From assembly GCF_041886205.1 (NCBI RefSeq), contig NZ_CP169029.1: a DNA stretch of 64,000 bases. One strand, 5' to 3'. Below are positions 2,904-26,956 of the stretch, in pieces; position 1 is the stretch's first letter; each line of letters begins with the position of its first letter. The notes beneath the pieces were generated by a model. That model made no database searches. It worked only from the letters and a program-made list of their open reading frames with translations, and was not told the origin of the DNA. The position numbers were made by a program, and so were the translations under genes. This DNA comes from Escherichia coli (GTDB taxonomy: Bacteria; Pseudomonadota; Gammaproteobacteria; Enterobacterales; Enterobacteriaceae).

Positions 2904-2929
2904 ATATTTGAAAGGTTGGTTTGGGAGAA
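2904..2929. other. Invertase crossover site A (gix/hix-like 12+2+12)
   Basis: atatttgaaagg-tt-ggtttgggagaa; inverted copy of the site at 4814-4839 (15 nt identical in reverse complement) with matching AA/TT core. Confidence 0.7.
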
Positions 2930-4442: not shown

Positions 4443-4453
4443 CCTGAATAAAA

Positions 4454-5119: not shown

Positions 5120-5704
5120 TTACTCCGGATATTTAAAAATTACGTAGGTATGCGACGGGCAGAGTTTGTTAAGCACACACTCGACAACGGTGTCGCCCCA
5201 GATACGCAGTGCGGAATCACAGGGATCGCCACATGTCATCCAGGTGGTGTTGGTGGCGGCTGGCATGTTGACCTGCCAGTAATACCGCCATTCCGGCGCA
5301 TTCACAGCGTCAGTGCAGGCTGATGAGCAGGTGAACGTGCTTTTGTCGTATCGCGTGATGGTAGCGTCTGGTCTGCCCAGGGCAGCAAGCTGTGCAAGAT
5401 AAAAATCCTCGTTGATGCCGCCCGCCAGGTTAACCTTCGCATCCAGCCGTTGCTGACGCTGGCGAAGGGTCTGTGTCCCTGCGGGAATACATTCATCCGG
5501 CAGACCGCACAGACGCTCCCAGCGGTTTATCAGTTCAGTGGTGGTGCGCGGATCCAGCTCCCGCATCAGGGCATCCGCACGCTGATGAACGCGGGTTAAT
5601 GACGGTGCCGCACCGGCAATCGCCGGATCGCTGGCTGACCACGCCGGACCGGGGGGCAACAGTGCCGACAACAGACGGATGTAATCATCGTTTGTCACGT
5701 CCAT
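5120..5704 (-). CDS. Mu gp48-like tail protein (YmfQ/DUF2313-like)
   Basis: 194 aa; position between baseplate J and tail fibre. Confidence 0.55.
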
Positions 5705-6753
5705 GAAATCGTCCCCAGTACCGCCAGTTCATTTTTTGCAATGGAGATATTGTCTGCCGGTGCAAGCAACTGATGGCTGTATTCCCCGTTCGCACCGGAA
5801 ATCGCTTCACTGATACGCGACACCTTCAGTTCTCCCTGCGGATAACCATCACGCAGCAGGAACGAACGCAACTCGGCGGTGATGGCAGCCCGTATTTCTG
5901 GTGTATCCGGCGTCACACGGATATGAAAATCCACCGTATGCGCCACCGGCCTGAACACATACAAATCAGAGCCTGCCACCGGGGCCAGTGGCTCGATATG
6001 CAGCCTTGCCGCCGTTTCCGTTGATTCTTCCGGAATGGGATTAATCAGGTCGCTGCTGGCAATCATCACACCGACAGTCCCCGTTCCCATCCAGTGTCGG
6101 TATGTCCATGCGCGGGTAATGCCGGGAACTTCTTTAGCCCAGACGACATAGTCCCCGTCAGCCCCGCCCTGAGGCGTCCAGTAATACCGCTCAATGACGC
6201 GGGCGCGCCACATTTCCAGCTCTTCAGTATCAAATCCACCTGTCAGTGTATCTGCCACGCCGGAAGACGGCAGACCATTCACCGGCGTGACCAGGATTAA
6301 TGACGTACCGTCGTCAGCGTTACCGACCGCGCCTGCACTTGAGCAGGCGATCGGCACGCGCAGGACACCACCGGAGCTGGTTGCATCGGCAGTTGCCGTG
6401 TACTGCACCAGGTCATCGCGCTGAATAACACTCCCGGCGGTCACCTTCAGGCCATCGCTGACACCTTCCCAGCGCATATACCCGCTGGCAGCCGTGGCCC
6501 CCTTGCGCGGACACCGTTTCATCGCAGCATGTCGCGCCAGCCAGGACTCATCGCACAAGTCAGGCAGCATGTTCATTGCCAGATAATCGATGTACCCGTA
6601 AACCGTATGCAGCGCCGCCGCATACACCTTTGCCCGCACGTCTTCATCCATGCGCCGGAGCGTGTCGCTGACGTCCAGCCTGGCGAATAAATCGTTACGG
6701 AGCATACTGATATTTTCTGCCAGCGTCGGGCGCTGAAATTCACTGTCCGCCAT
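5695..6753 (-). CDS. Baseplate J-like protein (Mu gp47-like)
   Basis: 352 aa; position and size; overlapping start/stop with neighbours. Confidence 0.7.
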
Positions 6754-7168
6754 GCGTTATCGCACTCCACAGATCATCAAAAGAAATCATTACCGGTCCG
6801 TCACGACGCCAGAGAGTGATACTGTTACCCAGTTCATTAATCCCGGTGCGGCGGATATCCAGATCAATACGGGACACCACGCCATCATCAATCATCCATT
6901 GCAGGCATTCGCGGATATACCCCCTTACCGTCTGCACCAGCTGATTGGTCAGTTTGCTGCGCTGAAGCAGCCACAGTCGGGAGCCGTAACGGTCATTCTG
7001 TACCGCAGGCCAGGTATCCCCCCACCATCCCATCGGGACGCCGGCGTTGTCATCAGGCTCCGCCCGCCGCCAGGTAAACAGGGAAATCACCACGGCGCGG
7101 GTCAGCGGATCCAGCGGTGCGCTGGCGCAGGTGCGTTTACCGTTCACCGTCAGCCACAGTTCCATCAT
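6740..7168 (-). CDS. Mu gp46-like baseplate protein
   Basis: 142 aa; synteny within Mu-like baseplate cluster. Confidence 0.55.
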   Translation of the reverse strand: MMELWLTVNGKRTCASAPLDPLTRAVVISLFTWRRAEPDDNAGVPMGWWGDTWPAVQNDRYGSRLWLLQRSKLTNQLVQTVRGYIRECLQWMIDDGVVSRIDLDIRRTGINELGNSITLWRRDGPVMISFDDLWSAITHGGQ

Positions 7169-7713
7169 GCCTCCATCGCTTTATCAGGTTTGTCGGTGTT
7201 ACTGCCCTGACCGTTCTCTCTGTGACGATGCCCGTTATAGGCAAGCCGCATCGCTGACATGGTGGTGCCGCCGGAGTCGCACAGGTCTTTCACCTGTCCT
7301 GTCACTTCCAGGTCCATTTCAAAACGTGCCTTAGGCGCATTGCGAAACGTGATCGTTTTACCAGCACCGTCCACCACGATCCCCTCCCGGGTCAGCGTCA
7401 CGGACTGCCCCTGATCGTCATAGACAGCCACCTCCCCAGTCTGCAGCCCTTTCAGGCGGTAGCGACGGTCCGACACCGTAACAACCACCGCATGAGAACG
7501 GTCGCCATCCGGAAACAACACCACCGCTTCCGCACCGCTGTTTGCCCTTGCGGTAAAACCGTAGGGTTCAAGATGTTCAACCCCGGCTTTGGGTTCACCG
7601 GCAATCAGGGACACATCCACGGTCTGACATTTCGTGGCGGCACTGATGCTTTTCACCACGGCCCGCCCAATCAGGCCGAGGAGTTGTCGCTGCATGGCTT
7701 CAATCGTCCTCAT
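7165..7713 (-). CDS. Baseplate assembly protein V / spike (Mu gp45-like)
   Basis: 182 aa; synteny. Confidence 0.6.
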   Translation of the reverse strand: MRTIEAMQRQLLGLIGRAVVKSISAATKCQTVDVSLIAGEPKAGVEHLEPYGFTARANSGAEAVVLFPDGDRSHAVVVTVSDRRYRLKGLQTGEVAVYDDQGQSVTLTREGIVVDGAGKTITFRNAPKARFEMDLEVTGQVKDLCDSGGTTMSAMRLAYNGHRHRENGQGSNTDKPDKAMEA

Positions 7714-8792
7714 CAGAACGGGTCCTCCTGTACTCTGGCTTTTTTCTTTTTCCGCGCGCCGGGGTCTTCAGGTTCAGGCAGATAAGCATCAGGCGGGCCG
7801 ACACGGATTTCCGTCAGGGTGCCGTTCTGGTCCTGAGTAAACGTGACTTCCGAAACAAGCAGTTCGGTATTTTCGAAACCACAGACCGGATCAAAGACAA
7901 TCACCCGCTGGTTGGGCTGCCACAGCGTACCGTTACCCTGTCGCCAGCCCTGCACCACATAGGTGGTTTCATCCGTCCGCGCCGCCCGTTGTCGGGCTTC
8001 AAAGTCCGCACGGGCAATACAGCCTGCCCCCGTAGCCTGCCCTGTCTGCCTGATATACATCGGACGGTAACGGGCAATAAATGCGTCCTCTGTGCGGGCC
8101 CGCAGCGCGGTGGTGGTGGCCTCACCGAAATCATCGTCGTTTCCGGCACGCTGCCCCGCCACCTGGTAAACAGAAAACCGCTCCCGGATACTCTTCTCCG
8201 TATCGCAGGAAAGGATGTTTTCCCCAAGTACCAGCGCGGTATGTGCCCGCGTTGAGCCAATACCGCCAATCACCAGCCTGCCGTGCGGGTCGTCATAAGC
8301 CAGCGCCTGCTGCTGACCGAGTATTTTGTTAATCACCTCGATCACCGTTTCACCGTGATCAGGCTGGACATCAGGAATAACACCCGACGGCGCACCGCTG
8401 TTCACCACCTCAATACCGAAGGGCGCAGCAAGCGCCTGCGCAATCTGTACCAGTGATCGTCCGTTAAACTGTGTCGGTTCGGCTGCACAATCAATCAGGT
8501 CAGCGGTCAGACTGCGTCCGGCAATACCGGTGCTGACCGAACGGGCATCGTAACGAACGGGCGTCGCCTCCACCCAGCCGGTGATCACCAGCTCATCACC
8601 AATCAGCACCTCCACTTTTGAACCGTTTTTAATGCGCGGCTGAAGCATGGTGATACCCTCATCACCCGGCCACTGGCGAGTGATCTCCACACTGAAATCC
8701 CGCGCCAGCCGTTCAATACCGGCACCGATGCGCACCGATGTCCAGCCATTCCACTCCCGGCCATTTACCCGTAGCGTGACATTGTCGTTCAT
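7713..8792 (-). CDS. Mu gpP-like tail/baseplate hub protein
   Basis: 359 aa; follows DNA circulation protein as in Mu-like tails. Confidence 0.65.
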   Translation of the reverse strand: MNDNVTLRVNGREWNGWTSVRIGAGIERLARDFSVEITRQWPGDEGITMLQPRIKNGSKVEVLIGDELVITGWVEATPVRYDARSVSTGIAGRSLTADLIDCAAEPTQFNGRSLVQIAQALAAPFGIEVVNSGAPSGVIPDVQPDHGETVIEVINKILGQQQALAYDDPHGRLVIGGIGSTRAHTALVLGENILSCDTEKSIRERFSVYQVAGQRAGNDDDFGEATTTALRARTEDAFIARYRPMYIRQTGQATGAGCIARADFEARQRAARTDETTYVVQGWRQGNGTLWQPNQRVIVFDPVCGFENTELLVSEVTFTQDQNGTLTEIRVGPPDAYLPEPEDPGARKKKKARVQEDPF

Positions 8793-10162
8793 TGCACTGG
8801 CACCTTCAGAGGGATCACCGGCACAAAGCCGGGATGCGTAATGGCATTACGCCGGATAATGTCCGCGTCACGCGCCGCGTTATCAAACCAGGTCGCTGCC
8901 AGCACCAGCGCGGGTAAAACCTCATCCGGTGTGCGCTGAATGATCCGTGCAGACTGTTCAAGGCGCGTGTTGATATCCGCATTCAGATCTGCTTTCACCC
9001 GGCGCAGCGCCAGAAACAGCGCATCACTGGTTGTACGGGACAACTCCTTATCAATTGCCGTATTCAGTGTGTCGCGAATGTCAGTCAGTTCTTCCCACGT
9101 CGGCAGGTCAACCGTGTTTTTCACCGCCGGTGCATTGTTCAGTGCCGGATGCGTGACGGAAGGCCAGCCAGTGCTCTGCGCGGGTGTTGTTGCCTGCCCC
9201 ACTGCGGAATTCTGCATCACCGCGGAAGTTGTTGGCGCAGGCAATCGGGTGACGGCATACGCCGCTTCGCTGATTGCGGTCGTACGAAGGGTGCTGGCAA
9301 CCACGTTACGCTGCTGCGTAGCCGTGGCGGTGGTTTTACTGTCCGTTTTCCAGACGCCGCGCGGTTGCAGATCGCTGCCGAGGCTGACACCGGAAAGCGT
9401 TTTGATCATGGTGACCAGGTCGCTGGCGTTACCATAAAGGCGTTTCCCGGTACGCCACATTTTCTGCACCTGCTCAACGAAATTTTTGCCTGACGATGGC
9501 GGCGGCAGAAGTACCGAGATATCCCCCTGTAACAGCCTGGCGGCATCCGATACGGCAGAATCCACCACTTTCATCGCATCAGAAACATACCCCAGCATTA
9601 TGCTGGCATTACCGATAACGTCGTTCTGCACGAAATCCGCCACACCATCGATACTGAAACCGCTGAAGCTGTCACTGATGCAGTCATCCAGTGCAGAACA
9701 GGATGACATCAGCGTCTGCGCCGTCGCCGCACCTGATGTGGGGTAAGAGAGCTCTCCTGCTTCGACAAACTTCAGGTCAAAGCGGACAATACGTCCTTCA
9801 CTTTTCGATGTGCTGACCCGAACTTCCCCGTCAACACAGACTTTCAGCTCACCGTATGTCGGATGGACAAGCGTGCCGGGACCGGGTTTATTCAGCGCGT
9901 CAATCAGGCGATCGCGCTGGTCAAAACAGTCATCTCCCACCACATAAGCCGTGATGGACGGGCGGAAAGTGATTTTCCCCAGGTCTTCGGTATAGGGTTT
10001 GTCGCGGTTCGGGTATTCATGTGTTTCTACACGGCGACCGGTTCCCGCACTTTCTTCTTCAACCTTAAACGGCACACCTCGAAATGATGCTTCAAGTAGC
10101 TTTTCACGCCAGCCACTTCGAGAATCAGAGGATAGGTACGAAGAAATATGAGAAAAATCCAT
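8789..10162 (-). CDS. DNA circulation protein (Mu gpN-like)
   Basis: 457 aa; N-terminal ...WREKLLEASFRGVPFKVEEE...GRRVETHEYPNRDKPYTEDLG motif recalled from Mu N family. Confidence 0.75.
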   Translation of the reverse strand: MDFSHISSYLSSDSRSGWREKLLEASFRGVPFKVEEESAGTGRRVETHEYPNRDKPYTEDLGKITFRPSITAYVVGDDCFDQRDRLIDALNKPGPGTLVHPTYGELKVCVDGEVRVSTSKSEGRIVRFDLKFVEAGELSYPTSGAATAQTLMSSCSALDDCISDSFSGFSIDGVADFVQNDVIGNASIMLGYVSDAMKVVDSAVSDAARLLQGDISVLLPPPSSGKNFVEQVQKMWRTGKRLYGNASDLVTMIKTLSGVSLGSDLQPRGVWKTDSKTTATATQQRNVVASTLRTTAISEAAYAVTRLPAPTTSAVMQNSAVGQATTPAQSTGWPSVTHPALNNAPAVKNTVDLPTWEELTDIRDTLNTAIDKELSRTTSDALFLALRRVKADLNADINTRLEQSARIIQRTPDEVLPALVLAATWFDNAARDADIIRRNAITHPGFVPVIPLKVPVQ

Positions 10163-10176
10163 GGCGTCACCTCAAA

Positions 10177-10207
10177 TAAAAACCGCGTGTAAACGCGGTT
10201 TTTTATT
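10177..10207 (-). terminator. Intrinsic terminator (symmetrical, A-run/T-run flanked) after moron gene
   Basis: aaaaaccgcg-tgtaaa-cgcggtttttt perfect hairpin. Confidence 0.7.
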
Positions 10208-10218
10208 AGGTAATAAAA

Positions 10219-10707
10219 TTAACGATCATAATCAACATTATGAGTATCTATTCTACATGATGAATAAGTAATTCCGCTTTCACCACTAATATTTACGCCA
10301 GCCTTTACCTTCCCTGTTTTCGTAACATCAACAAAGAATTGCCCTCTTGGCATTTTAAATGCAAAAGAGAAACCAATAATTTCCGAGTCAAAGTTATTTT
10401 CATCCTCACTAATTGGTACAATAAAAGTCAATGGTGCAGATTGTGAGTTATTTTCAAAATCAAAAGCACCAATGCTTTTATTAAACTCGTAGGATGCTTT
10501 TTTTATTAAAAGAGTTCCACTTGCCGACTTTGCTGGGCATATTACATACAGTCTATTTATTCCCTCTACATCTAGATCTATATTCTTATCCGCTGAAGTT
10601 TTAACGTTATCTATAAAGTATGTAGCAAGCTGCTTTTCCGTTACTGGCTTCGCAAAGGAGTTTAATGGCAGTCCTACAGCCAACAACAATATAAACATTT
10701 TCTTCAT
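10219..10707 (-). CDS. Moron: secreted/periplasmic protein of unknown function (signal peptide MKKMFILLLAVGLPLNSFA)
   Basis: AT-rich ORF inserted between tape-measure and DNA-circulation genes; own terminator; N-terminal hydrophobic signal with SFA cleavage motif; ORF-track start 10740 probably upstream of true start. Confidence 0.6.
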   Translation of the reverse strand: MKKMFILLLAVGLPLNSFAKPVTEKQLATYFIDNVKTSADKNIDLDVEGINRLYVICPAKSASGTLLIKKASYEFNKSIGAFDFENNSQSAPLTFIVPISEDENNFDSEIIGFSFAFKMPRGQFFVDVTKTGKVKAGVNISGESGITYSSCRIDTHNVDYDR

Positions 10708-10771
10708 ATTCTCTCCTACATTCAGCACAAACTTTACCACTCAATAACCCTACTTGATTAAAGTAGTTATA

Positions 10772-12673
10772 TTATCGTCTGAATGGAGAATACCCCACAT
10801 CGTGCGTGATTTTCATCAGGGGATCGGCTTTGCCCGGTACATCAATTATCTTCATACCTGGCGGAGCATTCTCGAACGTGACTTTCAGCTCGCTGTGCTG
10901 TGTCATGGAAGAAGATGGATTCAACAGCGGAACATTGGGTTTGTACTGACTCAGGCTGGCCTGATACTGCTCGTACTCTTTACGATCAAAAAAAGGCGTC
11001 CAGTCTGAAGCCAGAAACAGCCCTTTATTATCCAGCCAGTTAACCGTATCTTCAGGAACAACACTTTCCAGAGTATCTTTAACCGGCTCATACATCAGGG
11101 TTCCCAGAAAACCATATACCCCGGCCTTCCCGATAAAGCCGCGCCCTTTCCCCATCAATCCCGTTTCTGCCGATACCTTCCCCAGCGTACGCATCTCTCT
11201 GGTCACTGCGGTAATGGATTTGGTAACGTCAGCAACCCATTTGGTTGCCATAAACAGGGCAATCGCTTTCAGAACAGTTTCCCATCCCCCCATCGCCTGC
11301 GCCGTTTCATCCACCACGTGCCAGACTTTTTTTATGACAGGACCTACGGTTTCCCAATTATCAATAATGAGGTAAGCGCCACCAACCAGAAGAGCAATCA
11401 GCCCCTTAGCAGGCGTCATATTCATCACACCGCCGAGAACTTTCATGATTCTGGACAAAGAGCCTGCAGCGGCCCCCACTGTCAGTAAAGCCAGACCGAT
11501 TTTAGCAATGGTCTTAACGAGCTCCGGGTTTTCACGGACAAACGTTCTCACTTCCTCAAGGAGCGGTTTTACCGCTTCAAGACCATCATTAACCTCAGGA
11601 AGAAACGTTTCCCCCAGAGTGGAAGAAATGGCATCAAGTTGATTTTGCAGAAGTAAAAGCTGGTTTTCCGTCGTCGCTGCCCTCGAAGCATATTCCTTCT
11701 GCATCGAACTGCCATACTGCTGGGAATCCGCAACCCGCCTGAAGTTGGTACGCAACAAATCAAGGTTAGTCAGCAGAGGTGCTATCGCGCCCAGAGACTC
11801 TTTCCCGAACAGGGCATTCAGCACAGCTGCCTGTTTTTCTTTAGGCACTTTAGACATCGCATCCAGTACAGACAGCATGGTTCCCCGGGCATCTTTCTGC
11901 ATATCAGCAGCTAATTTCTTCGGATTGATCCGCAGAAAACGTAATGCCTGTTTCTGCGATTTTGTCGCGGAATTTCCCGCGGTCAGGGAAAGCATGAAGT
12001 TCTTGATCCCTGTGGCGGCAATTTCTGACTCCACGCCCATCCCGGCAATGGTTGCCCCCATTGCCGCGATTTCGCCGGAAGCCACACCTGCAACACCACC
12101 TAAAGGACCAATACGCGTAACAATATCGGAGATTTTCTTCGCATTCGCCGGACCGGTATTACCAAGGTAGTTGATTTTGTCAGCCAGCCCGGCCACTTCA
12201 TCCTGCGTCATATTAAACGCAGTACGCCACTGGGCCATCATCTGCCCGGACTCTTCAGCCGTGGTATCAAAGGCCACGCCCATCTTCACCGCATCAGTGG
12301 CAAACTGCATCAGTTCATCACGTGCAATCCCGGCCTGACCGCCAGCCGCCACAATTTCCGCGATCCCGTCTGCAGACATGGGAAGCTCAGTAGACAAAGC
12401 GCGTACCTGCTCCGTCATGGCCTTAAACGCATCCGGCGTATCCAGACCGTCCACCACTTTGCGGACATCAGCCATCTTCGATTCAAGGGTGATGGCTGAT
12501 TTTACAGGGAGTGCCAGTGCCCCCATTATTGCAGTACCCGCCCCGGCAGCGCCCAGAGCAAGGCTGGAGACTTCTTTCTGAAACCCCTTAAGCTGACGCT
12601 GCATACCTTTAAGCGGGCCGGATAGCCTGTCAACGGCGGTGATGATGGCTTTCAGCTGAAAATTATCAGCCAT
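10772..12673 (-). CDS. Tail tape measure protein
   Basis: 633 aa, Ala/Gly-rich with hydrophobic central segments, located after tail tube/chaperone. Confidence 0.8.
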   Translation of the reverse strand: MADNFQLKAIITAVDRLSGPLKGMQRQLKGFQKEVSSLALGAAGAGTAIMGALALPVKSAITLESKMADVRKVVDGLDTPDAFKAMTEQVRALSTELPMSADGIAEIVAAGGQAGIARDELMQFATDAVKMGVAFDTTAEESGQMMAQWRTAFNMTQDEVAGLADKINYLGNTGPANAKKISDIVTRIGPLGGVAGVASGEIAAMGATIAGMGVESEIAATGIKNFMLSLTAGNSATKSQKQALRFLRINPKKLAADMQKDARGTMLSVLDAMSKVPKEKQAAVLNALFGKESLGAIAPLLTNLDLLRTNFRRVADSQQYGSSMQKEYASRAATTENQLLLLQNQLDAISSTLGETFLPEVNDGLEAVKPLLEEVRTFVRENPELVKTIAKIGLALLTVGAAAGSLSRIMKVLGGVMNMTPAKGLIALLVGGAYLIIDNWETVGPVIKKVWHVVDETAQAMGGWETVLKAIALFMATKWVADVTKSITAVTREMRTLGKVSAETGLMGKGRGFIGKAGVYGFLGTLMYEPVKDTLESVVPEDTVNWLDNKGLFLASDWTPFFDRKEYEQYQASLSQYKPNVPLLNPSSSMTQHSELKVTFENAPPGMKIIDVPGKADPLMKITHDVGYSPFRR

Positions 12674-12757
12674 GCTTCATCTCCTCATTTATACGGACGG
12701 CCTCTGCCTCCAGATCAGCAAAGTGGGAAATAGCCGTCCGGCGAAGTTCAAGGGGGT

Positions 12758-13081
12758 TTAATTTCCAGAACCACGCGACATTGTAGAATCGCTTCCGGAG
12801 GTCTCTTCCGTCTCCAAGCCGGTAAAAAAACGCATTACAATCATGCCTGCCTTGAAAATATCCAGCTTCGTCATCTGCGCTGCAGACGAGCGCGGGATCC
12901 CGGCCAGAAGCGGGATATATTTCAGCGCTACCTGACTGTCCATTTTCATACCACCATCAGGCGAAACAGAGAAAGGGAACCCCAGCGCCTCAATCTCGTC
13001 ATACGTAGGCTCACGTATTTCCAGCACATGCAGTGTTTCTTTGTGGGCGATGATCGGTTTTTTAAGTACAAGCTCAATCAC
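12758..13081 (-). CDS. Tail assembly chaperone-like protein
   Basis: 107 aa between tube and tape measure. Confidence 0.5.
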   Translation of the reverse strand: MIELVLKKPIIAHKETLHVLEIREPTYDEIEALGFPFSVSPDGGMKMDSQVALKYIPLLAGIPRSSAAQMTKLDIFKAGMIVMRFFTGLETEETSGSDSTMSRGSGN

Positions 13082-13434
13082 TGGTAATCCCCTTCTTCAC
13101 CGTGGAACTCAAGATCAACCGTACCTTCTTCGGCATTATGGTTCGCTTCGCCGTGCAGCCAGGCTGACGACAATACATAGACCTGACCGTTCGCCAGCTC
13201 GGCAGTGATGGTCATCTCATCAGACGAGGTGATTTTGCTCACCGGAAAATTCTTCGGCACCTTGAAGGTCCCTTTGACATAAGGCGCACGGTGAGTTTCC
13301 TTGCGGTCCACTGAACCGTCCAGGCCGATGATGTCATCATTGACCGTCCTGTTCATGGGCACCTCAATGCCGCCGGTCAGCGATAGCTGCTGACCGTCAA
13401 TTTTGAAATAACAGGTTCCCCCGATACGGGCCAT
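13078..13434 (-). CDS. Tail tube protein (Mu gpM-like)
   Basis: 118 aa immediately after sheath gene, overlapping stop/start. Confidence 0.7.
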   Translation of the reverse strand: MARIGGTCYFKIDGQQLSLTGGIEVPMNRTVNDDIIGLDGSVDRKETHRAPYVKGTFKVPKNFPVSKITSSDEMTITAELANGQVYVLSSAWLHGEANHNAEEGTVDLEFHGEEGDYQ

Positions 13435-14930
13435 TATGCAGACTCCTCTGAATACTGAAGACGGAACTGGTTAACCACGGCAAAGACACGCAACTGGTTA
13501 ACATAGTCAGGCGGGAACAGCGTGTTCAGGCGGTTCGGATCGCTGGCATCACGCTCCACAACCAGGTACTGCTTAAACAGTTCGTAGTTTTCCACGATCC
13601 CCGCACGCTCAAGCTGACGGTAGGTTGCCAGCAGTTCCCCTTTGATTACCGCCGGAGTGACAATCGCCTGACCGGGACCAAAGCGGGTACCGTCGCTGGC
13701 AAGCTTGTGACGCCCGTACTTACTGGTAATGACGGATTTCAGTTTGCGCAGTACATACGCACTGGTATGCAGCGTCTCGCTGTCGAGGTAGCTGTTATCC
13801 GCAACCCCGTAAGCATTTTTCCTGTACGTGGTGACATCACGCTGAATGCGCAGCACCCCGCTTTCGACATACGCCGTTGCCACGCCATGAGACAGCAGGG
13901 TCTGTTGCTCGGTCATCGTGAACCGTTTCCCCTTCGGCGCAGGCAGCATCCCCACCAGCTCACCGGTCTGCGTGGGACGTGCCGGATCGTTGCGAATAAA
14001 CACAGCTGCGCGGGCGGTACGGCTTGCCGCCAGCTCGTCGGCTGGCGTCTGAGTGTCTTTTTCGTATCCCGCCAGGGTAATGTGCTGCTGGTTAAACTGG
14101 TCACCTGCGGTCACCAGTTCTGACAGCGTGCCGATCTTTGCCGTATACACATGACCATACAGCTGACGCGCATAGCTCCAGCGACCGCTGGTATCGTTCA
14201 TCTCGGTCACCAGCGTGTTAACGGAGGCCGTGTCGTTGAACGGCAGGCCGATATAATCAAACGGCTCATCCGCCATTGCAGCCACCGCGCCGGTGAGAAC
14301 AGGAGCGCCCGTTCCGGCGGTACCCGTCGCCACGGCAATCTGTACGCCCGCTGGCAGCACTTCGCCCCCACCAAAGCCGTAGTAATTGAGGCTGACAGGA
14401 ATTTCATTCCCGCAAAGCCCCTTATGACGCGCGGTCAGTGTGACCACGCCTGCCGAAGATGAGGCCGTAAACGGCAGGGCCGGAACGGCATTAATGGCAT
14501 CCTGGATACTGCTGGCAATCGTCGCGACGTTATCGCCGTTGGTCACCGGTGCCTGCACGCGGGTACGTCCCACATAAACATTCACCGTGCCAGTTTCGGT
14601 TGCCGCCCCGGTCACCGTCAGCGTAACCGTTGCCGCCGCGCCTGTGGCTTCCGGAACGGCAATCACATACAGCTCGCCAAACGGGTCGGTCTGGCGATAA
14701 GCCTCGACCATACGCGCCAGCTGACTTCCCGCACCACAAATCTGGCGTGCATAGTCTGCCGACGGCATCAGCACCAGACTGTTGGCAACAATCTCTGCAC
14801 CGTTATTGGCGTGACCAATCAGCAACGATGCCCCGCTGTCCTGTGCAGTATTCGCCGCCTGGTTATCCATTTCCGCATAAAACAGCGGAACCAGCGTATT
14901 CGACGGAATGGTGTTAAAGCTTATCGTCAT
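13434..14930 (-). CDS. Contractile tail sheath protein (Mu gpL-like)
   Basis: 498 aa; size/synteny. Confidence 0.8.
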   Translation of the reverse strand: MTISFNTIPSNTLVPLFYAEMDNQAANTAQDSGASLLIGHANNGAEIVANSLVLMPSADYARQICGAGSQLARMVEAYRQTDPFGELYVIAVPEATGAAATVTLTVTGAATETGTVNVYVGRTRVQAPVTNGDNVATIASSIQDAINAVPALPFTASSSAGVVTLTARHKGLCGNEIPVSLNYYGFGGGEVLPAGVQIAVATGTAGTGAPVLTGAVAAMADEPFDYIGLPFNDTASVNTLVTEMNDTSGRWSYARQLYGHVYTAKIGTLSELVTAGDQFNQQHITLAGYEKDTQTPADELAASRTARAAVFIRNDPARPTQTGELVGMLPAPKGKRFTMTEQQTLLSHGVATAYVESGVLRIQRDVTTYRKNAYGVADNSYLDSETLHTSAYVLRKLKSVITSKYGRHKLASDGTRFGPGQAIVTPAVIKGELLATYRQLERAGIVENYELFKQYLVVERDASDPNRLNTLFPPDYVNQLRVFAVVNQFRLQYSEESA

Positions 14931-15092
14931 CGGTGTTCACCTTTTTATTCACGCGCCGGATATCACCCGCTGCTTCACGGCGCAGCCAGTAGTTGTTCTC
15001 GTCAACATTTCGCCCTTCGGTGGGCAAAAGGTCACCGCGGGCAGGGTCAGGCACTGACCGCCCTTTAACAGGTTTCACAAACATGAAGATTC

Positions 15093-15653
15093 TCAGGAAG
15101 GAAGGGTTATTTCGGTGTGATGTTCGATATCGCCGTCAGGCCCGTTACCGGGATCGAGATAATCAACATCAATCGCCAGCGTTCGCAGTTCATCCAGACT
15201 GTTCAGGTCATCCTGCTGGCGGGTATCGTCTTCGGTCAGCTCGCTGATGACCGAAAAATCGAACTGATAAATCAGCTCATGACGATTCAGATCCAGCAGC
15301 GTGCCGCCGTCATAGTTAATCGGGTTACCGCACGCTTCCGGGTTCCAGCCCAGCAGGGCCTTAAAGAGCATCTGCCGGACATCGTCCACCACATCATACG
15401 AGGCAAACTGACCGCGCTCATCACGCCCGTTACTCAGTATGACAACCACGGAGAAGCCCTCTTTCAGCTCCTGCCAGTAGTCGGTATGGCTTTTGTTTTC
15501 TCCCGGAGAATCATCCCCCGGTACCACATATGCCGCCGGGAGTTTCAGCTTTCCGACCTCCGGCAGATTTTTGAACTGGGCCGCGCCTGCCACCCGGTTT
15601 TCAAAATACGGGCAGCGGGCACGCAGCGCAGCAATAACAGGCGTCAGTTTCAT
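15093..15653 (-). CDS. Tail terminator/completion-like protein
   Basis: 186 aa between head-tail joining genes and sheath. Confidence 0.4.
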   Translation of the reverse strand: MKLTPVIAALRARCPYFENRVAGAAQFKNLPEVGKLKLPAAYVVPGDDSPGENKSHTDYWQELKEGFSVVVILSNGRDERGQFASYDVVDDVRQMLFKALLGWNPEACGNPINYDGGTLLDLNRHELIYQFDFSVISELTEDDTRQQDDLNSLDELRTLAIDVDYLDPGNGPDGDIEHHTEITLPS

Positions 15654-16204
15654 GTTTTTTTCCTTCTTACAGGACGTAATGACCGCTGTAACTCACGGGA
15701 CAGTAACTTTTGTGTCCAGTAACGACGCTGGTCGATGACATCAGCCATAAAGTTATTACGTGGTGCCAGCCGCCAGCGGGATGAATGCTGCTTTTTCTGG
15801 CGCTTATCCTTTTTGCTCATCCCGTATGCGGCATGACGCACACCGTAATACAGAAACGCCGGATAATACGCAGAACCTTCAGGAAAACGCCGGTTACCCT
15901 GCCCGTTTTTCTGGTTAGGGGAAATCCTGACCATCAGGCCAGAACGACGGGAGCTTTTACGGGGGACGTAATAACCTATAGAACGCGCAAGTCGTCCGGT
16001 CTGATAGCCGGGGTTTTCACCTGGAGCAGACCGACCACGTCGCATCACCAGCCGCCGGGCATCACGCATATAGACACGCCCGATTTGAACAAATGCCCTT
16101 CGGAGCCTGGCACGATTAAACTCCATCTCCTCCGGTTGTTTGAAATCAACGTGTAAAAATGCTGTCTGCTCCACTGCGTCCTCCCATTTGTTCTTCGGCA
16201 CCAA
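15650..16204 (-). CDS. Head-tail joining protein (HK97 gp10-like)
   Basis: 184 aa basic protein; synteny. Confidence 0.4.
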   Translation of the reverse strand: MVPKNKWEDAVEQTAFLHVDFKQPEEMEFNRARLRRAFVQIGRVYMRDARRLVMRRGRSAPGENPGYQTGRLARSIGYYVPRKSSRRSGLMVRISPNQKNGQGNRRFPEGSAYYPAFLYYGVRHAAYGMSKKDKRQKKQHSSRWRLAPRNNFMADVIDQRRYWTQKLLSRELQRSLRPVRRKKT

Positions 16205-16556
16205 GTTCCGTACACTCCAGCAGCAGAAAGCGCCGCGCCCCGTTCAGATCACGCTGACGTTTCACCCGGTACACACTGTCATCACAGACCACCTCATAAT
16301 CAGCAGTGATCCCCCGGCGGTAGCGAATGGTGATGTAATGGGTGATGGCGTCTCCGATCTGCGCGGTTTCCTGCCAGGTGGTGGCACTGGTCTGGATAAC
16401 CTTCGCCCATGCCCGGAACGCAACCGGGTATTGAGGCTCCACGCCAAAGTTATCCGCGGGCATATCCACCCGCTGGCGGATCAGGACGCGTTTATTCAGC
16501 TCGCCTGGGTCAGGCAGAATGTAGGTTGCGCTGGTCTGCGCCTGACGAATTTTCAT
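16146..16556 (-). CDS. Head closure / head-tail adaptor protein
   Basis: 136 aa; synteny after capsid gene. Confidence 0.45.
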   Translation of the reverse strand: MKIRQAQTSATYILPDPGELNKRVLIRQRVDMPADNFGVEPQYPVAFRAWAKVIQTSATTWQETAQIGDAITHYITIRYRRGITADYEVVCDDSVYRVKRQRDLNGARRFLLLECTELGAEEQMGGRSGADSIFTR

Positions 16557-16921
16557 AGTGGTATAAGGCGATAAGGAGCAACCAACCAGTTAAAGCTCAT
16601 TGGCAACTCCATTTTCTCAACGTCTGTAACCGTTGAGCGGTTTTCGTAGAAATGGCTGACAAGTAGCAGGAGCGCCAGCTTCACATCATCAGATATCACA
16701 AGCCCATCAGGATCATCCGCAGGCCTGTCATCTGCGGTTGCATACAACGTACGGTTAAGGAAGTTTTCCGTCCGACTCTGAGCGGCCTTCCCAAGTAGTT
16801 CAAGCAACTCATCTTCATCAGAGAAATCATCATCCAGACGAAGCTGAAGCTTAATCTCTTCCATTTTTAACAGCATAAAACCTCCTGTGCCCGCCAGAAC
16901 GCGGGCACAAAAAAACCGCAT
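16553..16921 (-). CDS. Head-tail connector protein (gp6-like); true start possibly at internal Met
   Basis: 122 aa ORF directly after major capsid gene. Confidence 0.45.
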   Translation of the reverse strand: MRFFCARVLAGTGGFMLLKMEEIKLQLRLDDDFSDEDELLELLGKAAQSRTENFLNRTLYATADDRPADDPDGLVISDDVKLALLLLVSHFYENRSTVTDVEKMELPMSFNWLVAPYRLIPL

Positions 16922-16954
16922 TACGCGGCGTGCTGTATTACGTAAAAAGACTAA

Positions 16955-18184
16955 TCAACCACCAACGCTACCTTTCCCCACCAGCGCTTTAATGGCAGAG
17001 GTGTCTTCCAGGATACAGTCAAAACGATGGAAGGCCAGAAAACCGGTCTGATCATATTCCGCGTAACGCTCAACCAGACGTTTAAGAATCATGTATCGCA
17101 CACGACGGATAATGAAGCGATCAAAGTCACCACAGAACATGAATTTTTTACCCGCCCCGATATCATCAATTTCCTGATCAATGACATACGGTACATTCAA
17201 CACTGAAGCAGGGGCCACACCAACAATATCCGGCAACCATAAAGGGCGTCCCTGACCGTCTTCCATCTCACTGATCAGTTTCAGCGTATTATCGTTAAAC
17301 GCCAGGCGGAATTTCGGTCCGCGACGATATGCAGGATCAATGCTGTGTTTCAGAGCCAGAATTTCCTGCCACTTCACAGCATTTGCCGCGGCAGTCTGTG
17401 TTGTGCCGGTCACTGATGCTGCCAGCCCTTTGGGTTGTTTAGGCGTACCAGCACCCGTCCCCTGAATCAGATAACGGGCTTCACCACGACCAATACGTTC
17501 AGCAATGCGACGGGCAAGATAAGCTTCCATATCGATCGCGCTGTCCTGCAGCAACTCATTAGACACACGAATTATTTTCGATGTCATTTTGAGCGCCCCA
17601 AGGCTTCCCATACCGAAATCGGTGTCTTCTTCACCGGCTTCTTCATTTTCGCCCAGCAGAACACCAACTTCGGAAGTACCATCAGCTGTTGCCCACTCCA
17701 TAGTGCGACCGTCAGAAGTGGTAAGAATCTGCGCCACACTGGCGATGCCACCGTAGGATTTCATCTTCTCAACAACTTTCGCCAGGAATGTTTCTGGTAC
17801 GGTATATCCACCCTTTTCATCCTGAGCTACGCCCTGGGCACGAAGTTCACGCAACGCCTTTCGTTCTTCTGATGTCAGCTCACTGGCACCGTGACGCATC
17901 CACTTATCAAAAACCTGAGCTCGTTTCTCATCCTGTTGTGGATTGTTTTCCGGATCAAGATTCTGACGCTGCTCTTCCTCATTGCTTTCAATGTACGCCT
18001 GATCCTGACGACGTAGTTCTTCTTCGCGAGCAATTCGTTCATCAAGCGCTTCCAGTTCGGATTTTGCTTTGTTCCACTCAGTGCGCTGCTCTTCCGTCCA
18101 TGCGTTATCACCAATTTTTTCATTCAGGGCGCGCATGTCAGTTGCGATAGTATTACGTTTCTGTTTCAGTTCATGCAGTTTCAT
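16955..18184 (-). CDS. Major capsid protein (HK97 fold) with N-terminal coiled-coil delta/scaffold domain
   Basis: 409 aa; N-terminal charged coiled-coil then capsid body; follows prohead protease. Confidence 0.8.
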   Translation of the reverse strand: MKLHELKQKRNTIATDMRALNEKIGDNAWTEEQRTEWNKAKSELEALDERIAREEELRRQDQAYIESNEEEQRQNLDPENNPQQDEKRAQVFDKWMRHGASELTSEERKALRELRAQGVAQDEKGGYTVPETFLAKVVEKMKSYGGIASVAQILTTSDGRTMEWATADGTSEVGVLLGENEEAGEEDTDFGMGSLGALKMTSKIIRVSNELLQDSAIDMEAYLARRIAERIGRGEARYLIQGTGAGTPKQPKGLAASVTGTTQTAAANAVKWQEILALKHSIDPAYRRGPKFRLAFNDNTLKLISEMEDGQGRPLWLPDIVGVAPASVLNVPYVIDQEIDDIGAGKKFMFCGDFDRFIIRRVRYMILKRLVERYAEYDQTGFLAFHRFDCILEDTSAIKALVGKGSVGG

Positions 18185-18194
18185 GATGTTTCCT

Positions 18195-18812
18195 TTACGC
18201 GTTAAGAAGGGTCAGGACGCGTTCACGCGCCATACGTTGATTAATGGCTTTCTGTAGCGCGCCGCTGTTGCGCGCCTCCTGCCATGCTTTCATGGAGCGA
18301 ACAGCCGAGTCAGCCTCCTGATAGGCAGGATATGTCACAGGACTGACATCCAGCAGACGGGAAAAGCGGGTTATCTCGCGAATAACAACCCCGTCCTCAT
18401 CCTGATACCACTCCTCGCCGTCACGGGCGACACGGAAAGCAAAAGATGACTGGTTAATATCTCCACGTTGCATCGGGGCCAGCACCAGATCACGAATGGT
18501 CTGTGTCTCCGGAGCCTGGATGTCATAGCGCAATCCGCGCTCATCAACTGAAAGATTCAGCGTGCCTGCTGCACTACGCCCAAGAATAAAATTAGGATCG
18601 TGGTTAAACAGTGCGCGTACATCATCACCAAGCACATCGTCAAAAGCGCCGGGCCGGATGATTTCGCGGAATGAACCGAATATCAGCTCAGAACGACAGT
18701 CAAACACCGATCCATAACCGATAATGTGCGCCGGGTTATCGTCATGCCGCTCAGCACGCACCTCACCGCTGTAACAACGGATTTCACGGTCATTCATTGG
18801 TTTTTCCCTCAT
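18195..18812 (-). CDS. Prohead protease (HK97 family)
   Basis: 205 aa between portal and capsid. Confidence 0.75.
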   Translation of the reverse strand: MREKPMNDREIRCYSGEVRAERHDDNPAHIIGYGSVFDCRSELIFGSFREIIRPGAFDDVLGDDVRALFNHDPNFILGRSAAGTLNLSVDERGLRYDIQAPETQTIRDLVLAPMQRGDINQSSFAFRVARDGEEWYQDEDGVVIREITRFSRLLDVSPVTYPAYQEADSAVRSMKAWQEARNSGALQKAINQRMARERVLTLLNA

Positions 18813-20064
18813 CGTTTTTTGGGGGCTTAAAATCTCCTGCCGGGTTAGCAGCGTTCACGCTTACCAGCATCTCATCCAGCCCTTCAACCGGATTCATATC
18901 CTCGAATGCGCGGGCCTCATTACGGCTCATCCATCCATCGGTAATAGCGAAGTGATAGAATTGCGCGCGCTCCTGCGGAGTTCCGCGTAAAAGCCCCGTC
19001 AGATTGAACCTGACGTAATACCCGGCGGCTAACTCAGCGCGGGTAAACAAGCGACGGTTAAGCTCCTGCTCCCAGTTCGTCACCCACGGCATCATCGTGT
19101 AGCGGACAAACTGAATCGCCTGCGCAGAAATATTGGAGAAGGTGGCTTTTTCGAGGTCATTAATCATGTGCGCAGGAATATTGAAAATACCGGCAATCAT
19201 TGAACGGTTCAGTTTCATCATGTCAATGATCTGAGCGTCAACTGGCGACACAGTCAGTGCCTTGTAATCCAGATCGGCTGGCAGCAGCATGGTTTTGTTT
19301 TCCTGGCGGCGTAACGCCTGCGATGCCTTCTGCCACTGATCTTTAAGCCAGCCCCAGCTTTCCTTATTGAGTCCGCTTTTAACGGATACTATCCCCGCCG
19401 GACGGGCATTACCGCTGAAGAAGCTTTCTGTGTACTTCTGACCGCTCATCCCCATGCCTATTGTTTCGGCATGTTGCATAATCGGACTCAGCCCCATCTT
19501 CTGATTATTACCCAGCGCACGGATGTGGATCATATCGTCCGGACTGATCGCAAACGCCCCATATTCGTTGTACAAACCGTAGGTATATCGGCCACCAGTA
19601 TTCATCAGCGTCGTTTCCCACGGCATACAGCAATCCAGGGATATGACTTCACCGCGACGATTACGTTTCACCCAGGTATACCCATTCCCCCAGCCAAGGA
19701 TGTGACGTTGCTTCAGTTCGCGCCATTTGTAGCTGGTTTGCCAGGTATTGGGCTCATCATGAACCAGATAAAACGCCGGATGATCGCGTGCGGGTTCAAC
19801 CTTCCCCTTGTGCCTGCGCATAACATGCAACGGCATCTGGGCAAGGCTGGAAGACAGGACATAGATACAGGAATACACCGCAGCCAGTTTCATCGCAGTC
19901 TCAGGACTGACATAAACGTCTGCCCGGAACAGCCCATCAGTATCAACGGCATCACCGGTTATCGGGGTGGAAGGATTCTCCAGTGATTTACTTCTGAACA
20001 GAGCATCAAGCAGCACGCGTCCCCCTTCTGGCCATAGCCAGTGCGCCCACCAGCAGTAAAGCAC
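18790..20064 (-). CDS. Portal protein
   Basis: 424 aa after terminase large subunit. Confidence 0.8.
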   Translation of the reverse strand: MLYCWWAHWLWPEGGRVLLDALFRSKSLENPSTPITGDAVDTDGLFRADVYVSPETAMKLAAVYSCIYVLSSSLAQMPLHVMRRHKGKVEPARDHPAFYLVHDEPNTWQTSYKWRELKQRHILGWGNGYTWVKRNRRGEVISLDCCMPWETTLMNTGGRYTYGLYNEYGAFAISPDDMIHIRALGNNQKMGLSPIMQHAETIGMGMSGQKYTESFFSGNARPAGIVSVKSGLNKESWGWLKDQWQKASQALRRQENKTMLLPADLDYKALTVSPVDAQIIDMMKLNRSMIAGIFNIPAHMINDLEKATFSNISAQAIQFVRYTMMPWVTNWEQELNRRLFTRAELAAGYYVRFNLTGLLRGTPQERAQFYHFAITDGWMSRNEARAFEDMNPVEGLDEMLVSVNAANPAGDFKPPKNDEGKTNE

Positions 20065-20167
20065 CGGACAAAATCAGAGCCGGAGCCATACCAAACTGCA
20101 GGTAAACCCCGCACGTAAGCAGGCCAAAACCAGCCAGCCCGATAACATCAGCAATTAGTGATTTCAT
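20006..20167 (-). CDS. Small hydrophobic protein (53 aa) overlapping terminase stop and portal start
   Basis: ATGA overlap with terminase stop; [53 protein letters not shown]; below ORF-track length cutoff. Confidence 0.3.
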
Positions 20168-26955: not shown

Positions 26956-26956
26956 C

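Follow-up and report, generated by a model that had tools for sequence, protein, structure and literature searches.

An Escherichia coli prophage of the SfV/SfIV/SKA5 group with genes for an HK97-type head and a Mu-type contractile tail

The window, a 64,000-nt stretch of Escherichia coli DNA from whose start all coordinates are counted, holds a prophage of ~39 kb. An earlier note had described lambdoid, HK97-type and Mu-like modules side by side at 5120-20064, an interval that spans the gp48-like through the portal gene only, with HNH, TerL, TerS, the lysis genes, Q, RusA, Cro and CI lying outside it. All gene classes named there were found in the window by Pfam and tblastn, with HK97-type head and packaging genes, a Mu-type tail and lambdoid regulation; they lie on the minus strand, except for CI on the plus strand, and their matches are far beyond chance. 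The left part of the prophage contains the following features.

1-800, part copy of IS903B (IS5 family), 99% identical over query positions 1 to ~800 to annotated IS903B transposase loci in many E. coli
844-1848, plus strand, SDH-type Clp-fold serine proteinase, an accessory gene (moron) (phrog_21683, E 2e-198; PGAP name in relatives)
2281-2844, minus strand, Gin/Pin-type serine DNA invertase (Pfam Resolvase and HTH_7)
2911-4832, invertible tail-fibre segment (Pfam Collar, Caudo_TAP)
2921-3415 (plus strand) and 4454-4812 (minus strand), alternative fibre C-termini
3416-4018 (plus strand) and 3990-4442 (minus strand), fibre-assembly genes
4454-5116, minus strand, tail fibre gene in its current orientation (63% identical to SfV orf21; Pfam Gp53-like_C)

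Because the window begins inside IS903B, the left end of the prophage, which carries the integrase in relatives, is out of view, and prophage-type matches begin at 789. The proteinase scored under the curated cut-off against Pfam PF01972 and had no PADLOC match. The invertase is 51% identical to Mu Gin (E 1e-59) and 99% identical to the SKA5 invertase, and the segment beside it lies between gix-like inverted repeats (2911-2930 and 4813-4832), with 20-nt arms that are 90% complementary and a site that matches Mu gix at 23 of 32 positions. The constant N-terminal part of the fibre (4833-5116) joins in frame to either C-terminus in both segment orientations, and the flipped junction was found in 513 E. 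coli genomes. The Gin-like invertase would act on the gix-like sites, allowing the fibre C-terminus to switch. This layout of a constant N-terminus, alternative C-termini and assembly genes is common to the Mu G segment, but the fibre and assembly proteins show no relationship to Mu S and U and resemble Stf and Tfa of HK97 and lambda (54-88% identical to HK97). SfV lacks both the invertase and the invertible segment, while the fibre C-termini and assembly proteins of SKA5 are 54-66% identical to those of the prophage.

The tail genes that follow are all on the minus strand.

5120-10162, minus strand, Mu-type baseplate block (29-44% identical to Mu gp48, 47, 46, 45, P and N), made up of the next six genes
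5120-5704, minus strand, gp48-like protein (PF10076, E 9e-27)
5695-6753, minus strand, baseplate J/gp47-like protein (31% identical to Mu gp47, E 2e-38)
6740-7168, minus strand, GP46 (Pfam)
7165-7713, minus strand, gp45/V-like protein (Pfam)
7713-8792, minus strand, gpP/gp44-like hub (35% identical to Mu P, E 2e-53)
8789-10162, minus strand, DNA-circulation gpN-like protein (Pfam), unmatched by P2 tail proteins
10219-10740, minus strand, 173-aa open reading frame between the tape-measure and gpN-like genes (phrog_5586)
10772-12673, minus strand, tape measure (Pfam PhageMin_Tail)
12758-13081, minus strand, tail assembly chaperone (Pfam Phage_TAC_7)
13078-13434, minus strand, tube (PF10618, the family of Mu M)
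13434-14930, minus strand, sheath (Phage_sheath families; 36% identical to Mu L over 500 aa, E 3e-85)
14914-15084, minus strand, gp38-like DUF2635 protein (PF10948; 40% identical to Mu gp38)

Judged from the sequence, the tail is Mu-type, not P2-type. Between 5120 and 15084 lie minus-strand genes, arranged as in Mu, whose products are homologous to Mu gp38, L, M, gp41, the tape measure, N, P and gp45-48 at 29-44% amino acid identity (tblastn), and the Mu-type tail proteins were assigned to Mu-specific Pfam families, so that the module is collinear with Mu (NC_000929) from gp38 to gp48 and shares its families; the baseplate block carries PF10076, PF04865, PF07409, PF06890, PF21683/PF22255/PF21929 and PF07157. 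In SKA5, the tail genes are annotated as Mup38 to Mup47. The baseplate proteins are 96-100% identical to those of SfV, SfIV and SKA5, the baseplate, sheath and tube are 98-100% identical in SfV, and SfIV (NC_022749) has 96-100% amino acid identity in all tail proteins between the gp48-like one and the neck. A P2-type tail, to which we give practically no credence, could draw on the sheath (PF04984 and PF17482) and Baseplate_J (PF04865) families, which are broad and also include P2 homologues, and on a weak match of the tape measure to P2 gpT (27% over 244 aa, E 1e-9), but apart from that match no P2 tail protein hit the window at E<=1, except for fragments at chance level. None of the tail proteins fell in the three P2-type Pfam families checked (PF04985, PF05954 and PF09684), to which P2 FII, D and I were assigned in control runs that placed Mu M in PF10618; instead, the tube, hub and gp48-like proteins belong to PF10618, GpP-like families and PF10076, and the genes run in the order of Mu gp38 to gp48, the gpN-like one included. 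We rejected the P2-type tail, the alternative that the earlier note itself had named, as Pfam families, sequence matches and gene order are all Mu-type.

Within the tail module, the tape measure is 99.4% identical to that of SfIV at the amino acid level and only 24% to that of SfV, and the chaperone is 98% identical to SfIV and 44% to SfV, while SKA5, unlike the prophage, carries the SfV allele of this cassette. A −1 slippery site, T TTT TTT, lies at 12830-12824 in the chaperone gene, and the −1 frame has 54 open codons with a stop that overlaps the tape-measure ATG.

Between the tail and the packaging genes lie the neck and head genes.

15093-15653, minus strand, tail terminator (PF23840, phrog_209)
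15650-16204, minus strand, neck/tail-completion protein (phrog_879)
16146-20064, minus strand, HK97-type head module: gp7-like head closure, gp6-like connector, capsid, protease and portal (Pfam)
16955-18184, minus strand, HK97-family major capsid protein (Pfam)
18195-18812, minus strand, S78 prohead protease (Pfam)
18790-20064, minus strand, portal (26% identical to HK97 gp3, E 4e-40)
20164-21897, minus strand, TerL (Pfam; 26% identical to HK97 gp2)
21894-22397, minus strand, P27-family TerS (Pfam)
22515-22865, minus strand, HNH endonuclease (Pfam; 36% identical to the HK97 HNH gene at 39054-39413)

The head module falls in the Pfam and PHROG families of HK97 gp4-gp7, and HK97 shares with the prophage the families of gp2-gp7 and an HNH gene adjoining the terminase. 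The portal and TerL are only 26% identical to their HK97 counterparts, and HK97 gp4 and gp5 had no BLAST match among the window proteins, so that the capsid and protease are called HK97-type by shared Pfam family only. The siphoviral tail genes of HK97 and lambda (V, H, M, L, K, I and J) are absent from the prophage. In SfV the connector, capsid, protease, portal and TerL have counterparts of 99-100% amino acid identity, TerS one of 98% and HNH one of 96%, and the head-closure protein is 96% identical to SfIV and 87% to SfV. By contrast, SfIV carries another HK97-family head allele: its portal and capsid share only 25-28% identity with those of the prophage, and its protease had no match. The genome ends (cos) of SfV map to 22455/22456, where SfV positions 1 and 37074 adjoin. 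The neck proteins at 15093-16204, at the interface of head and tail modules, belong by Pfam and PHROG to neither parental family; in control runs Mu gp36 and gp37 fell in phrog_195 and phrog_490, and HK97 gp10 and gp11 in phrog_5 and phrog_347. A picture of two parental modules is therefore a simplification. For the neck protein at 15650-16204, identity to SfV is no more than 61%.

The remainder of the prophage carries lysis, regulatory and early genes.

22892-24706, minus strand, lysis cassette (lysis genes listed at 23049-24706): two holin-family genes, a GH19-type endolysin and Rz/Rz1-like spanins (PF16931, PF05449 and PF00182; spanin phrog_214)
25194-31893, lambdoid late/early regulation and replication (Pfam)
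25194-25946, minus strand, Q antiterminator (35% identical to lambda Q)
27786-28175, minus strand, RusA (Pfam)
30947-31144, minus strand, Cro (Pfam)
31240-31893, plus strand, CI (34% identical to lambda CI)
32165-38430, early-left/accessory region: YfdQ/YfdR-like, Ea22-like, DUF551, 3'-5' exonuclease and PrtN-type excisionase-like genes
37849-38430, Panacea-domain protein, with a partner of no assigned function at 37382-37852
38572-38678, displaced dusA 5' fragment at the right prophage end (att), 84% identical to the dusA 5' end of RM9088

By homology, the regulation is lambdoid: identity to the lambda/HK97 counterparts is 34-38% for CI, Q and RusA, and the block at 25194-31893 has ~97% nucleotide identity with the lambda-like siphovirus mEp460 and with Stx2c phages, the early region being 96-99% identical to mEp460 at the amino acid level. 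The block also holds DUF968/HNH, KilA-N, LexA-like, PerC-like, O-like replication and CII-like genes; no homologue of the N antiterminator was detected in the window. Q, DUF968, KilA-N and RusA are 98-100% identical to those of SfV, whereas the CI/Cro immunity and holin/endolysin genes differ from SfV. The immunity genes are 99-100% identical to those of SKA5, as are the holin and endolysin genes, which have no SfV match, and the spanins are 76-92% identical to SKA5 and 64-88% to SfV.

The dusA fragment marks the right edge, and in CFS3292 the equivalent position carries a PGAP-annotated partial tRNA-dihydrouridine synthase gene, with zur, dinF, lexA, plsB and ubiA after it. At the corresponding end of SKA5 (OR670062) a dusA fragment is followed by integrase, DinI, invertase and invertible fibre, an order (dusA-int-DinI-invertase) repeated in RM9088 beside an intact dusA; RM9088 and ETEC H10407 both carry dusA-integrated E. 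coli prophages. The SfV integrase had no match in the window, and the relatives in dusA carry another, dusA-associated integrase. As the earlier note had stated, a Mu transposase is lacking: MuA and MuB homologues were not found in the window at E<=1 except for an 11-residue chance match, and Mu c/ner, Mor/C and head genes (gp28-30, I and T) are also absent from it; the Mu neck proteins gp36 and gp37 belong to families other than those of the prophage.

Taken along the genome, the CI/Cro switch and Q lie upstream of a same-strand late run of lysis genes, HNH-cos-TerS-TerL, portal, protease, capsid, connectors, two neck proteins specific to the lineage, and tail, the last comprising the gp38-like protein, sheath, tube, frameshifting chaperone, tape measure, gpN-like protein, gpP-like hub, gp45-like spike, gp46/47/48-like wedge and fibre. 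By analogy with lambda, the late genes may form one Q-dependent operon, and packaging would proceed from cos with HNH assistance as in HK97. Integration and excision would be carried out by a tyrosine integrase just left of the window, as in relatives, and not by transposition, the lifestyle of Mu. The myovirus SfIV has a head of 55 nm and a contractile tail of 101 nm; its head proteins are of the HK97 family and its tape measure is divergent (PMC3851460). The virion encoded by the genes seen here would likewise have a contractile tail, ~100 nm long, and an isometric head of ~55 nm, like those observed in SfV and SfIV.

Intactness and integration mode are read from relatives because the integrase and left att fall outside the window, and with IS903B at the left edge the element could instead be a decayed, non-inducible remnant or a tailocin-like tail cluster, for which a passage of PMC4542187 gives a precedent in Mu/SfV-type tail clusters co-opted as R-type syringacins. 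We consider this unlikely, as the head, packaging, lysis, regulation and replication reading frames are full-length and 96-100% identical to those of SfV, SfIV and SKA5, which have been isolated as phages (spanins 76-92% to SKA5), the reading-frame map has no frameshifted structural gene, and a tailocin would be without head and replication genes. We are highly confident that this element is a temperate prophage of E. coli, belongs to the SfV/SfIV/SKA5 group and lies in the dusA 5' end, with lambdoid genome logic and a myovirus virion.

Its sequence makes the prophage an ordinary E. coli member of that well-studied group. Some 22 kb of it have 96-97% nucleotide identity to Shigella phage SfV (NC_003444; Allison et al. 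2002, 2003), whose architecture and gene order are the same, and about three quarters of both halves have 97-98% identity to SKA5; over 78% of its length, the 15-kb interval at 5120-20064 is 97.5-97.8% identical to both. Each protein encoded there except that of the 173-aa frame has a counterpart at least 96% identical in SfV, SfIV or SKA5. Matches at 98-99% over 80-100% of the interval were found in 97 complete E. coli genomes, and 2001 of 5426 E. coli genomes contain the interval at least in part. The SfV O-antigen genes gtrA/B/V had no match in the prophage, and SfIV carries gtrIV with an SfV-type integrase and immunity region.

Membership of this group means that the head/tail junction is not peculiar to the studied genome. 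A tail only 29-44% identical to Mu beside HK97-family head genes, and a GC content that ranges from 0.45 to 0.58 along the structural region, might suggest that an HK97-like siphovirus and a Mu-like phage recombined recently and in this genome alone, but the low-GC patch is simply the SfIV allele of the tape-measure cassette, and the head-tail arrangement is identical in SfV (sequenced in 2002), SKA5 and the 97 complete genomes. It recurs more distantly in phiP27, ST64B and Salmonella phages, with 74-76% nucleotide identity in the tail region, extending into the head genes in Salmonella phage F1055. We rejected this fresh exchange, very improbable in our estimate, because related phages and genomes already have the arrangement; the HK97-head/Mu-tail joint is an old, fixed feature of the SfV-group lineage. 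The mix of lambda-like control, HK97-type head and Mu-type contractile tail was published in 2002-2003, and a passage of PMC4542187 citing Allison et al. 2002, with the title of Allison et al. 2003, describes SfV as having a Mu-like tail and structural genes of two phage families.

The earlier note had allowed that a match of the whole genome to a single known phage lineage would undo its reading, and the prophage does belong to one such lineage (SfV at 96-97% over ~22 kb, SKA5 at 97-98%). Its description of a Mu-type tail, HK97-type head and lambdoid control stands, but the value it saw for tracing module exchange does not, and as such a tracer the prophage contributes nothing new. The recent exchanges visible in it are swaps between known relatives only: the head is SfV-type, the tape-measure cassette and neck are SfIV-type, and the immunity and lysis genes SKA5-type.

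Compared with SKA5 and the dusA relatives, the prophage differs in its IS903B left edge, the SDH-proteinase moron and the frame between the tape-measure and gpN-like genes. This 173-aa frame had no Pfam or PADLOC match and was not found in SfV, SfIV or SKA5, and is probably an accessory gene. It lies in a low-GC stretch, and RM9088 has a frame annotated as hypothetical in the equivalent slot.

In the open reading frame map of the window, minus-strand genes form one long run that starts near 25,900 and continues to 3,990; a divergent regulatory region at around 31,000 comes before it. DNA searches showed that the host is E. coli and that the element is a prophage. The earlier note had described this element as a lambdoid phage in which an HK97-type head is joined to a Mu-like tail. 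We compared the open reading frames with Pfam families and, by tblastn, with SfV, Mu, lambda, HK97 and P2, and reciprocally searched the window with Mu, P2 and HK97 proteins. Every gene class named in that description was found in the window (Pfam, tblastn and reciprocal search), and the description of lambdoid regulation, HK97-type head and Mu-type tail is correct, confirming the observation. The interval originally drawn around the mosaic, 5120-20064, holds the genes from the gp48-like gene through the portal gene, but the terminase, HNH, lysis and regulatory genes lie outside it, at 20164-31893.

The tail genes, all on the minus strand, were as follows.

Tail genes and their relation to phage Mu
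5120-5704, minus strand, gp48-like protein, 29-30% identical to Mu gp48; PF10076
5695-6753, minus strand, gp47/Baseplate J protein, 31% identical to Mu
6740-7168, minus strand, gp46-like protein, 40-44% identical to Mu
7165-7713, minus strand, gp45/V-like protein, 29-30% identical to Mu
7713-8792, minus strand, gpP/gp44 hub, 35% identical to Mu
8789-10162, minus strand, gpN DNA-circulation protein, 40-43% identical to Mu in the N-terminal domain only
10772-12673, minus strand, tape measure, no BLAST match to Mu
12758-13081, minus strand, chaperone, PF10109, common to Mu gp41
13078-13434, minus strand, tube, PF10618, the family of Mu gpM
13434-14930, minus strand, sheath, 36% identical to Mu over 500 aa (E 3e-85)
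14914-15084, minus strand, gp38-like protein, 40% identical to Mu

These genes follow the Mu order from gp38 to gp48 exactly, giving the ordered tail and baseplate set that characterizes Mu-like phages, and the GenBank record of Escherichia phage SKA5 (OR670062) itself labels its tail genes Mup38 to Mup47. A P2-type tail, which the earlier note had allowed would overturn its reading, was rejected on two grounds. In the reciprocal tblastn no P2 tail protein matched the window except the tape measure, a weak match of 27% over 244 aa. As Pfam controls, P2 FII, D and I fall in PF04985, PF05954 and PF09684, whereas the tube of the window belongs to PF10618, its hub to GpP-like families and its gp48-like protein to PF10076; the P2-like combination of a PF04985 tube, a PF05954 gpD hub, PF09684 gpI and a split V-operon/F-operon order was not found. 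The tail is therefore of Mu type and not of P2 type, as the Mu matches and the P2 Pfam controls both indicate. In addition, the chaperone gene contains a T TTT TTT heptamer at 12830-12824 (minus strand; region 12663-12830). Its -1 frame has 54 open codons, ending in a stop that overlaps the tape-measure start codon, and this arrangement resembles the G/GT-type programmed frameshift conserved in the genes of tail assembly chaperones.

The DDE transposase MuA and the ATPase MuB, which mark phages that replicate by transposition, gave no matches in the window, which excludes the left end of the prophage, in agreement with the earlier statement that no Mu transposase is present, and none of the Mu head genes (gp28 TerL, gp29 portal, gp30, the I protease and the T capsid) matched at E ≤ 1. 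Instead, Pfam placed upstream of the tail a gp7-type head-closure protein, a gp6-type connector, a PF05065 capsid, an S78 (PF04586) protease and a PF04860 portal, and beyond the portal TerL, a P27-family TerS and an HNH endonuclease. These genes belong to the same Pfam and PHROG families as HK97 gp2-gp7; portal and TerL are each 26% identical to their HK97 counterparts, and the HNH protein, encoded adjacent to the terminase, is 36% identical to the product of the HK97 HNH gene at 39054-39413. Capsid, protease, portal, connectors and an HNH gene beside the terminase together make up an HK97-type head and packaging module. Chainmail cross-linking of the capsid and cleavage of its delta domain are further features of modules of this type. 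The capsid and protease had no direct BLAST similarity to those of HK97, and their link to HK97 is one of family-level membership only. The SfV (NC_003444) genome ends abut at 22455/22456, between HNH and TerS, which locates the packaging (cos) site there.

The HK97-family head and packaging genes are followed directly by the Mu-type contractile tail, the order annotated for SfV orf1-orf22, with two genes at the junction.

Genes at the head-tail junction
15093-15653, minus strand, tail terminator, PF23840, phrog_209
15650-16204, minus strand, neck protein, phrog_879

We considered whether Mu homology extends into the neck and rejected this, as the terminator and neck proteins, Mu gp36/gp37/G and HK97 gp10/gp11 all fall in different PHROG families. 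Because both junction proteins fall outside the Mu gp36/37 and HK97 gp10/11 families, the module boundary stays at 15084-16204: the Mu-like block can be detected as far as 15084, and the HK97-like block begins at 16146.

Regulation is lambdoid. The genes for CI (S24+HTH) and Cro diverge from each other within 30947-31893, and Q is a PF03589 protein. Identity to the lambda counterparts is 35% for Q and 34% for CI, and RusA matches the HK97 protein at 38%. At the nucleotide level the early region is ~97% identical to that of mEp460 and of Stx2c phages, which are siphoviral lambdoids. The prophage thus combines the divergent CI/Cro switch, Q-type late antitermination, lambda-like order of functions and ability to recombine with other lambdoids that define the group; tblastn of the window found no homologue of the lambda or HK97 N proteins, which are short and divergent enough that such a search may miss them. 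Lambdoid CI/Cro regulation is also known in SfIV (PMC3851460), and serotype-converting Shigella phages have been termed lambdoid (PMC4406740). Among the products of the lysis cassette at 23049-24706 (minus strand), two holin-family proteins (PF16931, PF05449) and a GH19-type endolysin match their SKA5 counterparts at 99-100%, and the Rz/Rz1-like spanins match theirs at 76-92%. By contrast, SfV carries lambda-type S/R lysis genes.

The Q antiterminator gene lies upstream of an unbroken same-strand series of lysis, HNH, cos, terminase, head, neck, tail and fibre genes. By analogy with lambda, HK97 and Mu biology, we infer that this series would be transcribed late as one Q-dependent operon, that HNH-assisted cos cleavage would accompany packaging into an HK97-fold capsid matured by its protease, and that the contractile tail would be assembled separately and then attached to the head. 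The baseplate would follow the Mu plan, with a gp44-type hub, a gp45-type spike and gp46/47/48-type wedges, while the 633-aa tape measure would set tail length and the terminator and neck proteins would form the interface of the two modules. The 98-100% identical sheath, tube and baseplate proteins suggest a particle with an isometric head and a ~100-nm contractile tail; electron microscopy exists for SfV (PMC4542187) and for SfIV, a myovirus with a 55-nm head, a 101-nm contractile tail and HK97-family head proteins (PMC3851460).

The earlier note had also held that its view would fail if the whole genome matched a single known phage lineage, and this is what we found: the element belongs to the SfV/SfIV/SKA5 lineage, with ~22 kb of the whole prophage aligning to SfV at 96-97% nucleotide identity, and SKA5 matching at 97-98% with 74-78% coverage. 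Of the interval 5120-20064, 78% aligned with SKA5 and SfV at 97.5-97.8% identity and 73% with SfIV (NC_022749) at 98%. Some E. coli genomes, among them ETEC H10407 and RM9088, carry the entire interval at 98-99%. At least 80% of it was covered in 97 genomes, and some of it was present in 2001 of 5426 complete E. coli genomes. The high identity and synteny of both structural and early regions place the prophage among the SfV-like temperate myoviruses, a group made up of SfV, SfIV, SfI, SfII and SKA5. The SfV alignment gap at 10094-13052 corresponds to the tape-measure cassette, which carries the SfIV allele (99.4% aa identical), a difference between SfIV and SfV already remarked upon (PMC3851460).

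Closest relatives in the per-gene comparison
Connector, capsid, protease and portal: SfV and SKA5, 99-100%
Head-closure gene: closer to SfIV, 96%
Neck (15650-16204), chaperone and tape measure: SfIV, 98-99%
CI, Cro, holins and endolysin: SKA5, 99-100%
Genes from Q to RusA, and those of the YfdQ/YfdR region: SfV, SfIV and mEp460, a lambda-like siphovirus, 96-100%

This further member of the group shows routine shuffling of alleles between known relatives, combining the head of SfV with the tape measure of SfIV and the immunity and lysis genes of SKA5. For tracing module exchange, the use suggested earlier, the prophage contributes nothing further, as the only exchanges that can be followed are swaps of alleles between relatives sequenced before. 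To find lambdoid regulation together with an HK97-family head and a tail of Mu type is textbook phage modular evolution; this combination in SfV was published in 2002-2003 by Allison et al., as cited in PMC4542187, and the SfV mosaic has since been used as a point of reference, among other things in tracing where R-type syringacins came from (PMC4542187). Mosaicism in this lineage, which is very common in E. coli, has been recognized for more than twenty years; the present element is one of its ordinary members, and the architecture, being already known, holds nothing new in itself. The finding matters little beyond correct annotation, with practical value limited to prophage typing of the host strain.

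The gtrABC serotype-conversion cassette was sought through SfV 17858-21815 (gtrV, gtrB, gtrA, int), to which nothing in the window aligned. A gtrABC cassette by int defines only the Shigella serotype-converting subset of the SfV-like group. In place of the SfV gtr/int genes, this prophage has an invertase with a fibre switch and a dusA site, as in SKA5. The serine invertase (2281-2844), 51% identical to Mu Gin, adjoins a 1.9-kb segment (2911-4832). Inverted repeats of 20 nt (2911-2930 and 4813-4832) delimit the segment and match Mu gix at 23 of 32 positions; one of them lies inside the tail-fibre gene. In both orientations the constant N-terminus (5116-4833) continues in frame into a different C-terminus, and each C-terminus has an assembly gene of its own behind it. 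An invertase beside ~26-bp inverted crossover sites, one of them in a fibre gene so that inversion exchanges both the C-terminus and the assembly gene, is the arrangement of Din-family switches (Mu G, P1 C, e14 P), and this segment, judged from its sequence, has the organization of the Mu G segment; inversion in this strain is predicted. Both orientations occur among E. coli genomes, the flipped junction being present in 513 complete ones. The fibre and assembly proteins are HK97/lambda Stf/Tfa-like (54-88% identical to HK97) rather than Mu S/U. The prophage adds another example of a Gin-type host-range switch in a phage other than Mu.

Accessory genes lie at several positions.

Accessory genes
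844-1848, plus strand, SDH-type Clp-fold serine proteinase, phrog_21683, between the IS copy and the invertase
10219-10740, minus strand, 173-aa open reading frame, phrog_5586, low-GC stretch, no Pfam or PADLOC match
37382-37852, minus strand, 156-aa open reading frame
37849-38430, minus strand, Panacea-domain (SocA-like antitoxin) protein, directly upstream of the 156-aa frame at the right prophage end

The 173-aa frame, the only one in 5120-20064 without a counterpart in the compared phages, occupies a slot flanked by the tape-measure and gpN-like genes. Neither SfV nor SfIV has it, and SKA5 carries an unrelated frame in this slot, which therefore seems to be a variable site for morons within the tail operon. 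The SDH-type proteinase gene is present in some related prophages, and the Panacea-domain protein and its neighbour may be a toxin-antitoxin pair. PADLOC returned no defence-system match for ten candidate accessory frames, the Panacea pair included, and we consider it improbable that these small non-SfV inserts represent accessory or anti-phage functions not yet described, carried by an otherwise common prophage.

At the right prophage end, the 107 bp at 38572-38678 match the start of dusA (its 5′ end) at 84% identity, a displaced fragment that marks the right attachment site and identifies a dusA-targeting element; a displaced dusA 5′ piece is the signature of the family of elements integrating at this end (PMC4482086). 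A tRNA integration site was ruled out, as the window holds no tRNA genes and has the dusA fragment instead. At the left edge, the first ~800 bases (1-800) are part of an IS903B (IS5-family) copy, and because the window opens inside it, the left prophage end, integrase and attL are out of view; IS903B may have separated or disrupted the integration module. The corresponding left end of SKA5 and RM9088 carries dusA, a tyrosine integrase, DinI and then the invertase. With the integrase outside the window, integration would be by site-specific recombination into dusA, and this copy is one more example of dusA-targeting integration. To the right, the host genes run in the order partial dusA, zur, yjbJ, dinF, lexA, dgkA, plsB, ubiA and ubiC. 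Two host stretches, 39038-40024 and 48000-50000, have low GC (0.35-0.37), the first being a DUF2713 gene in relatives.
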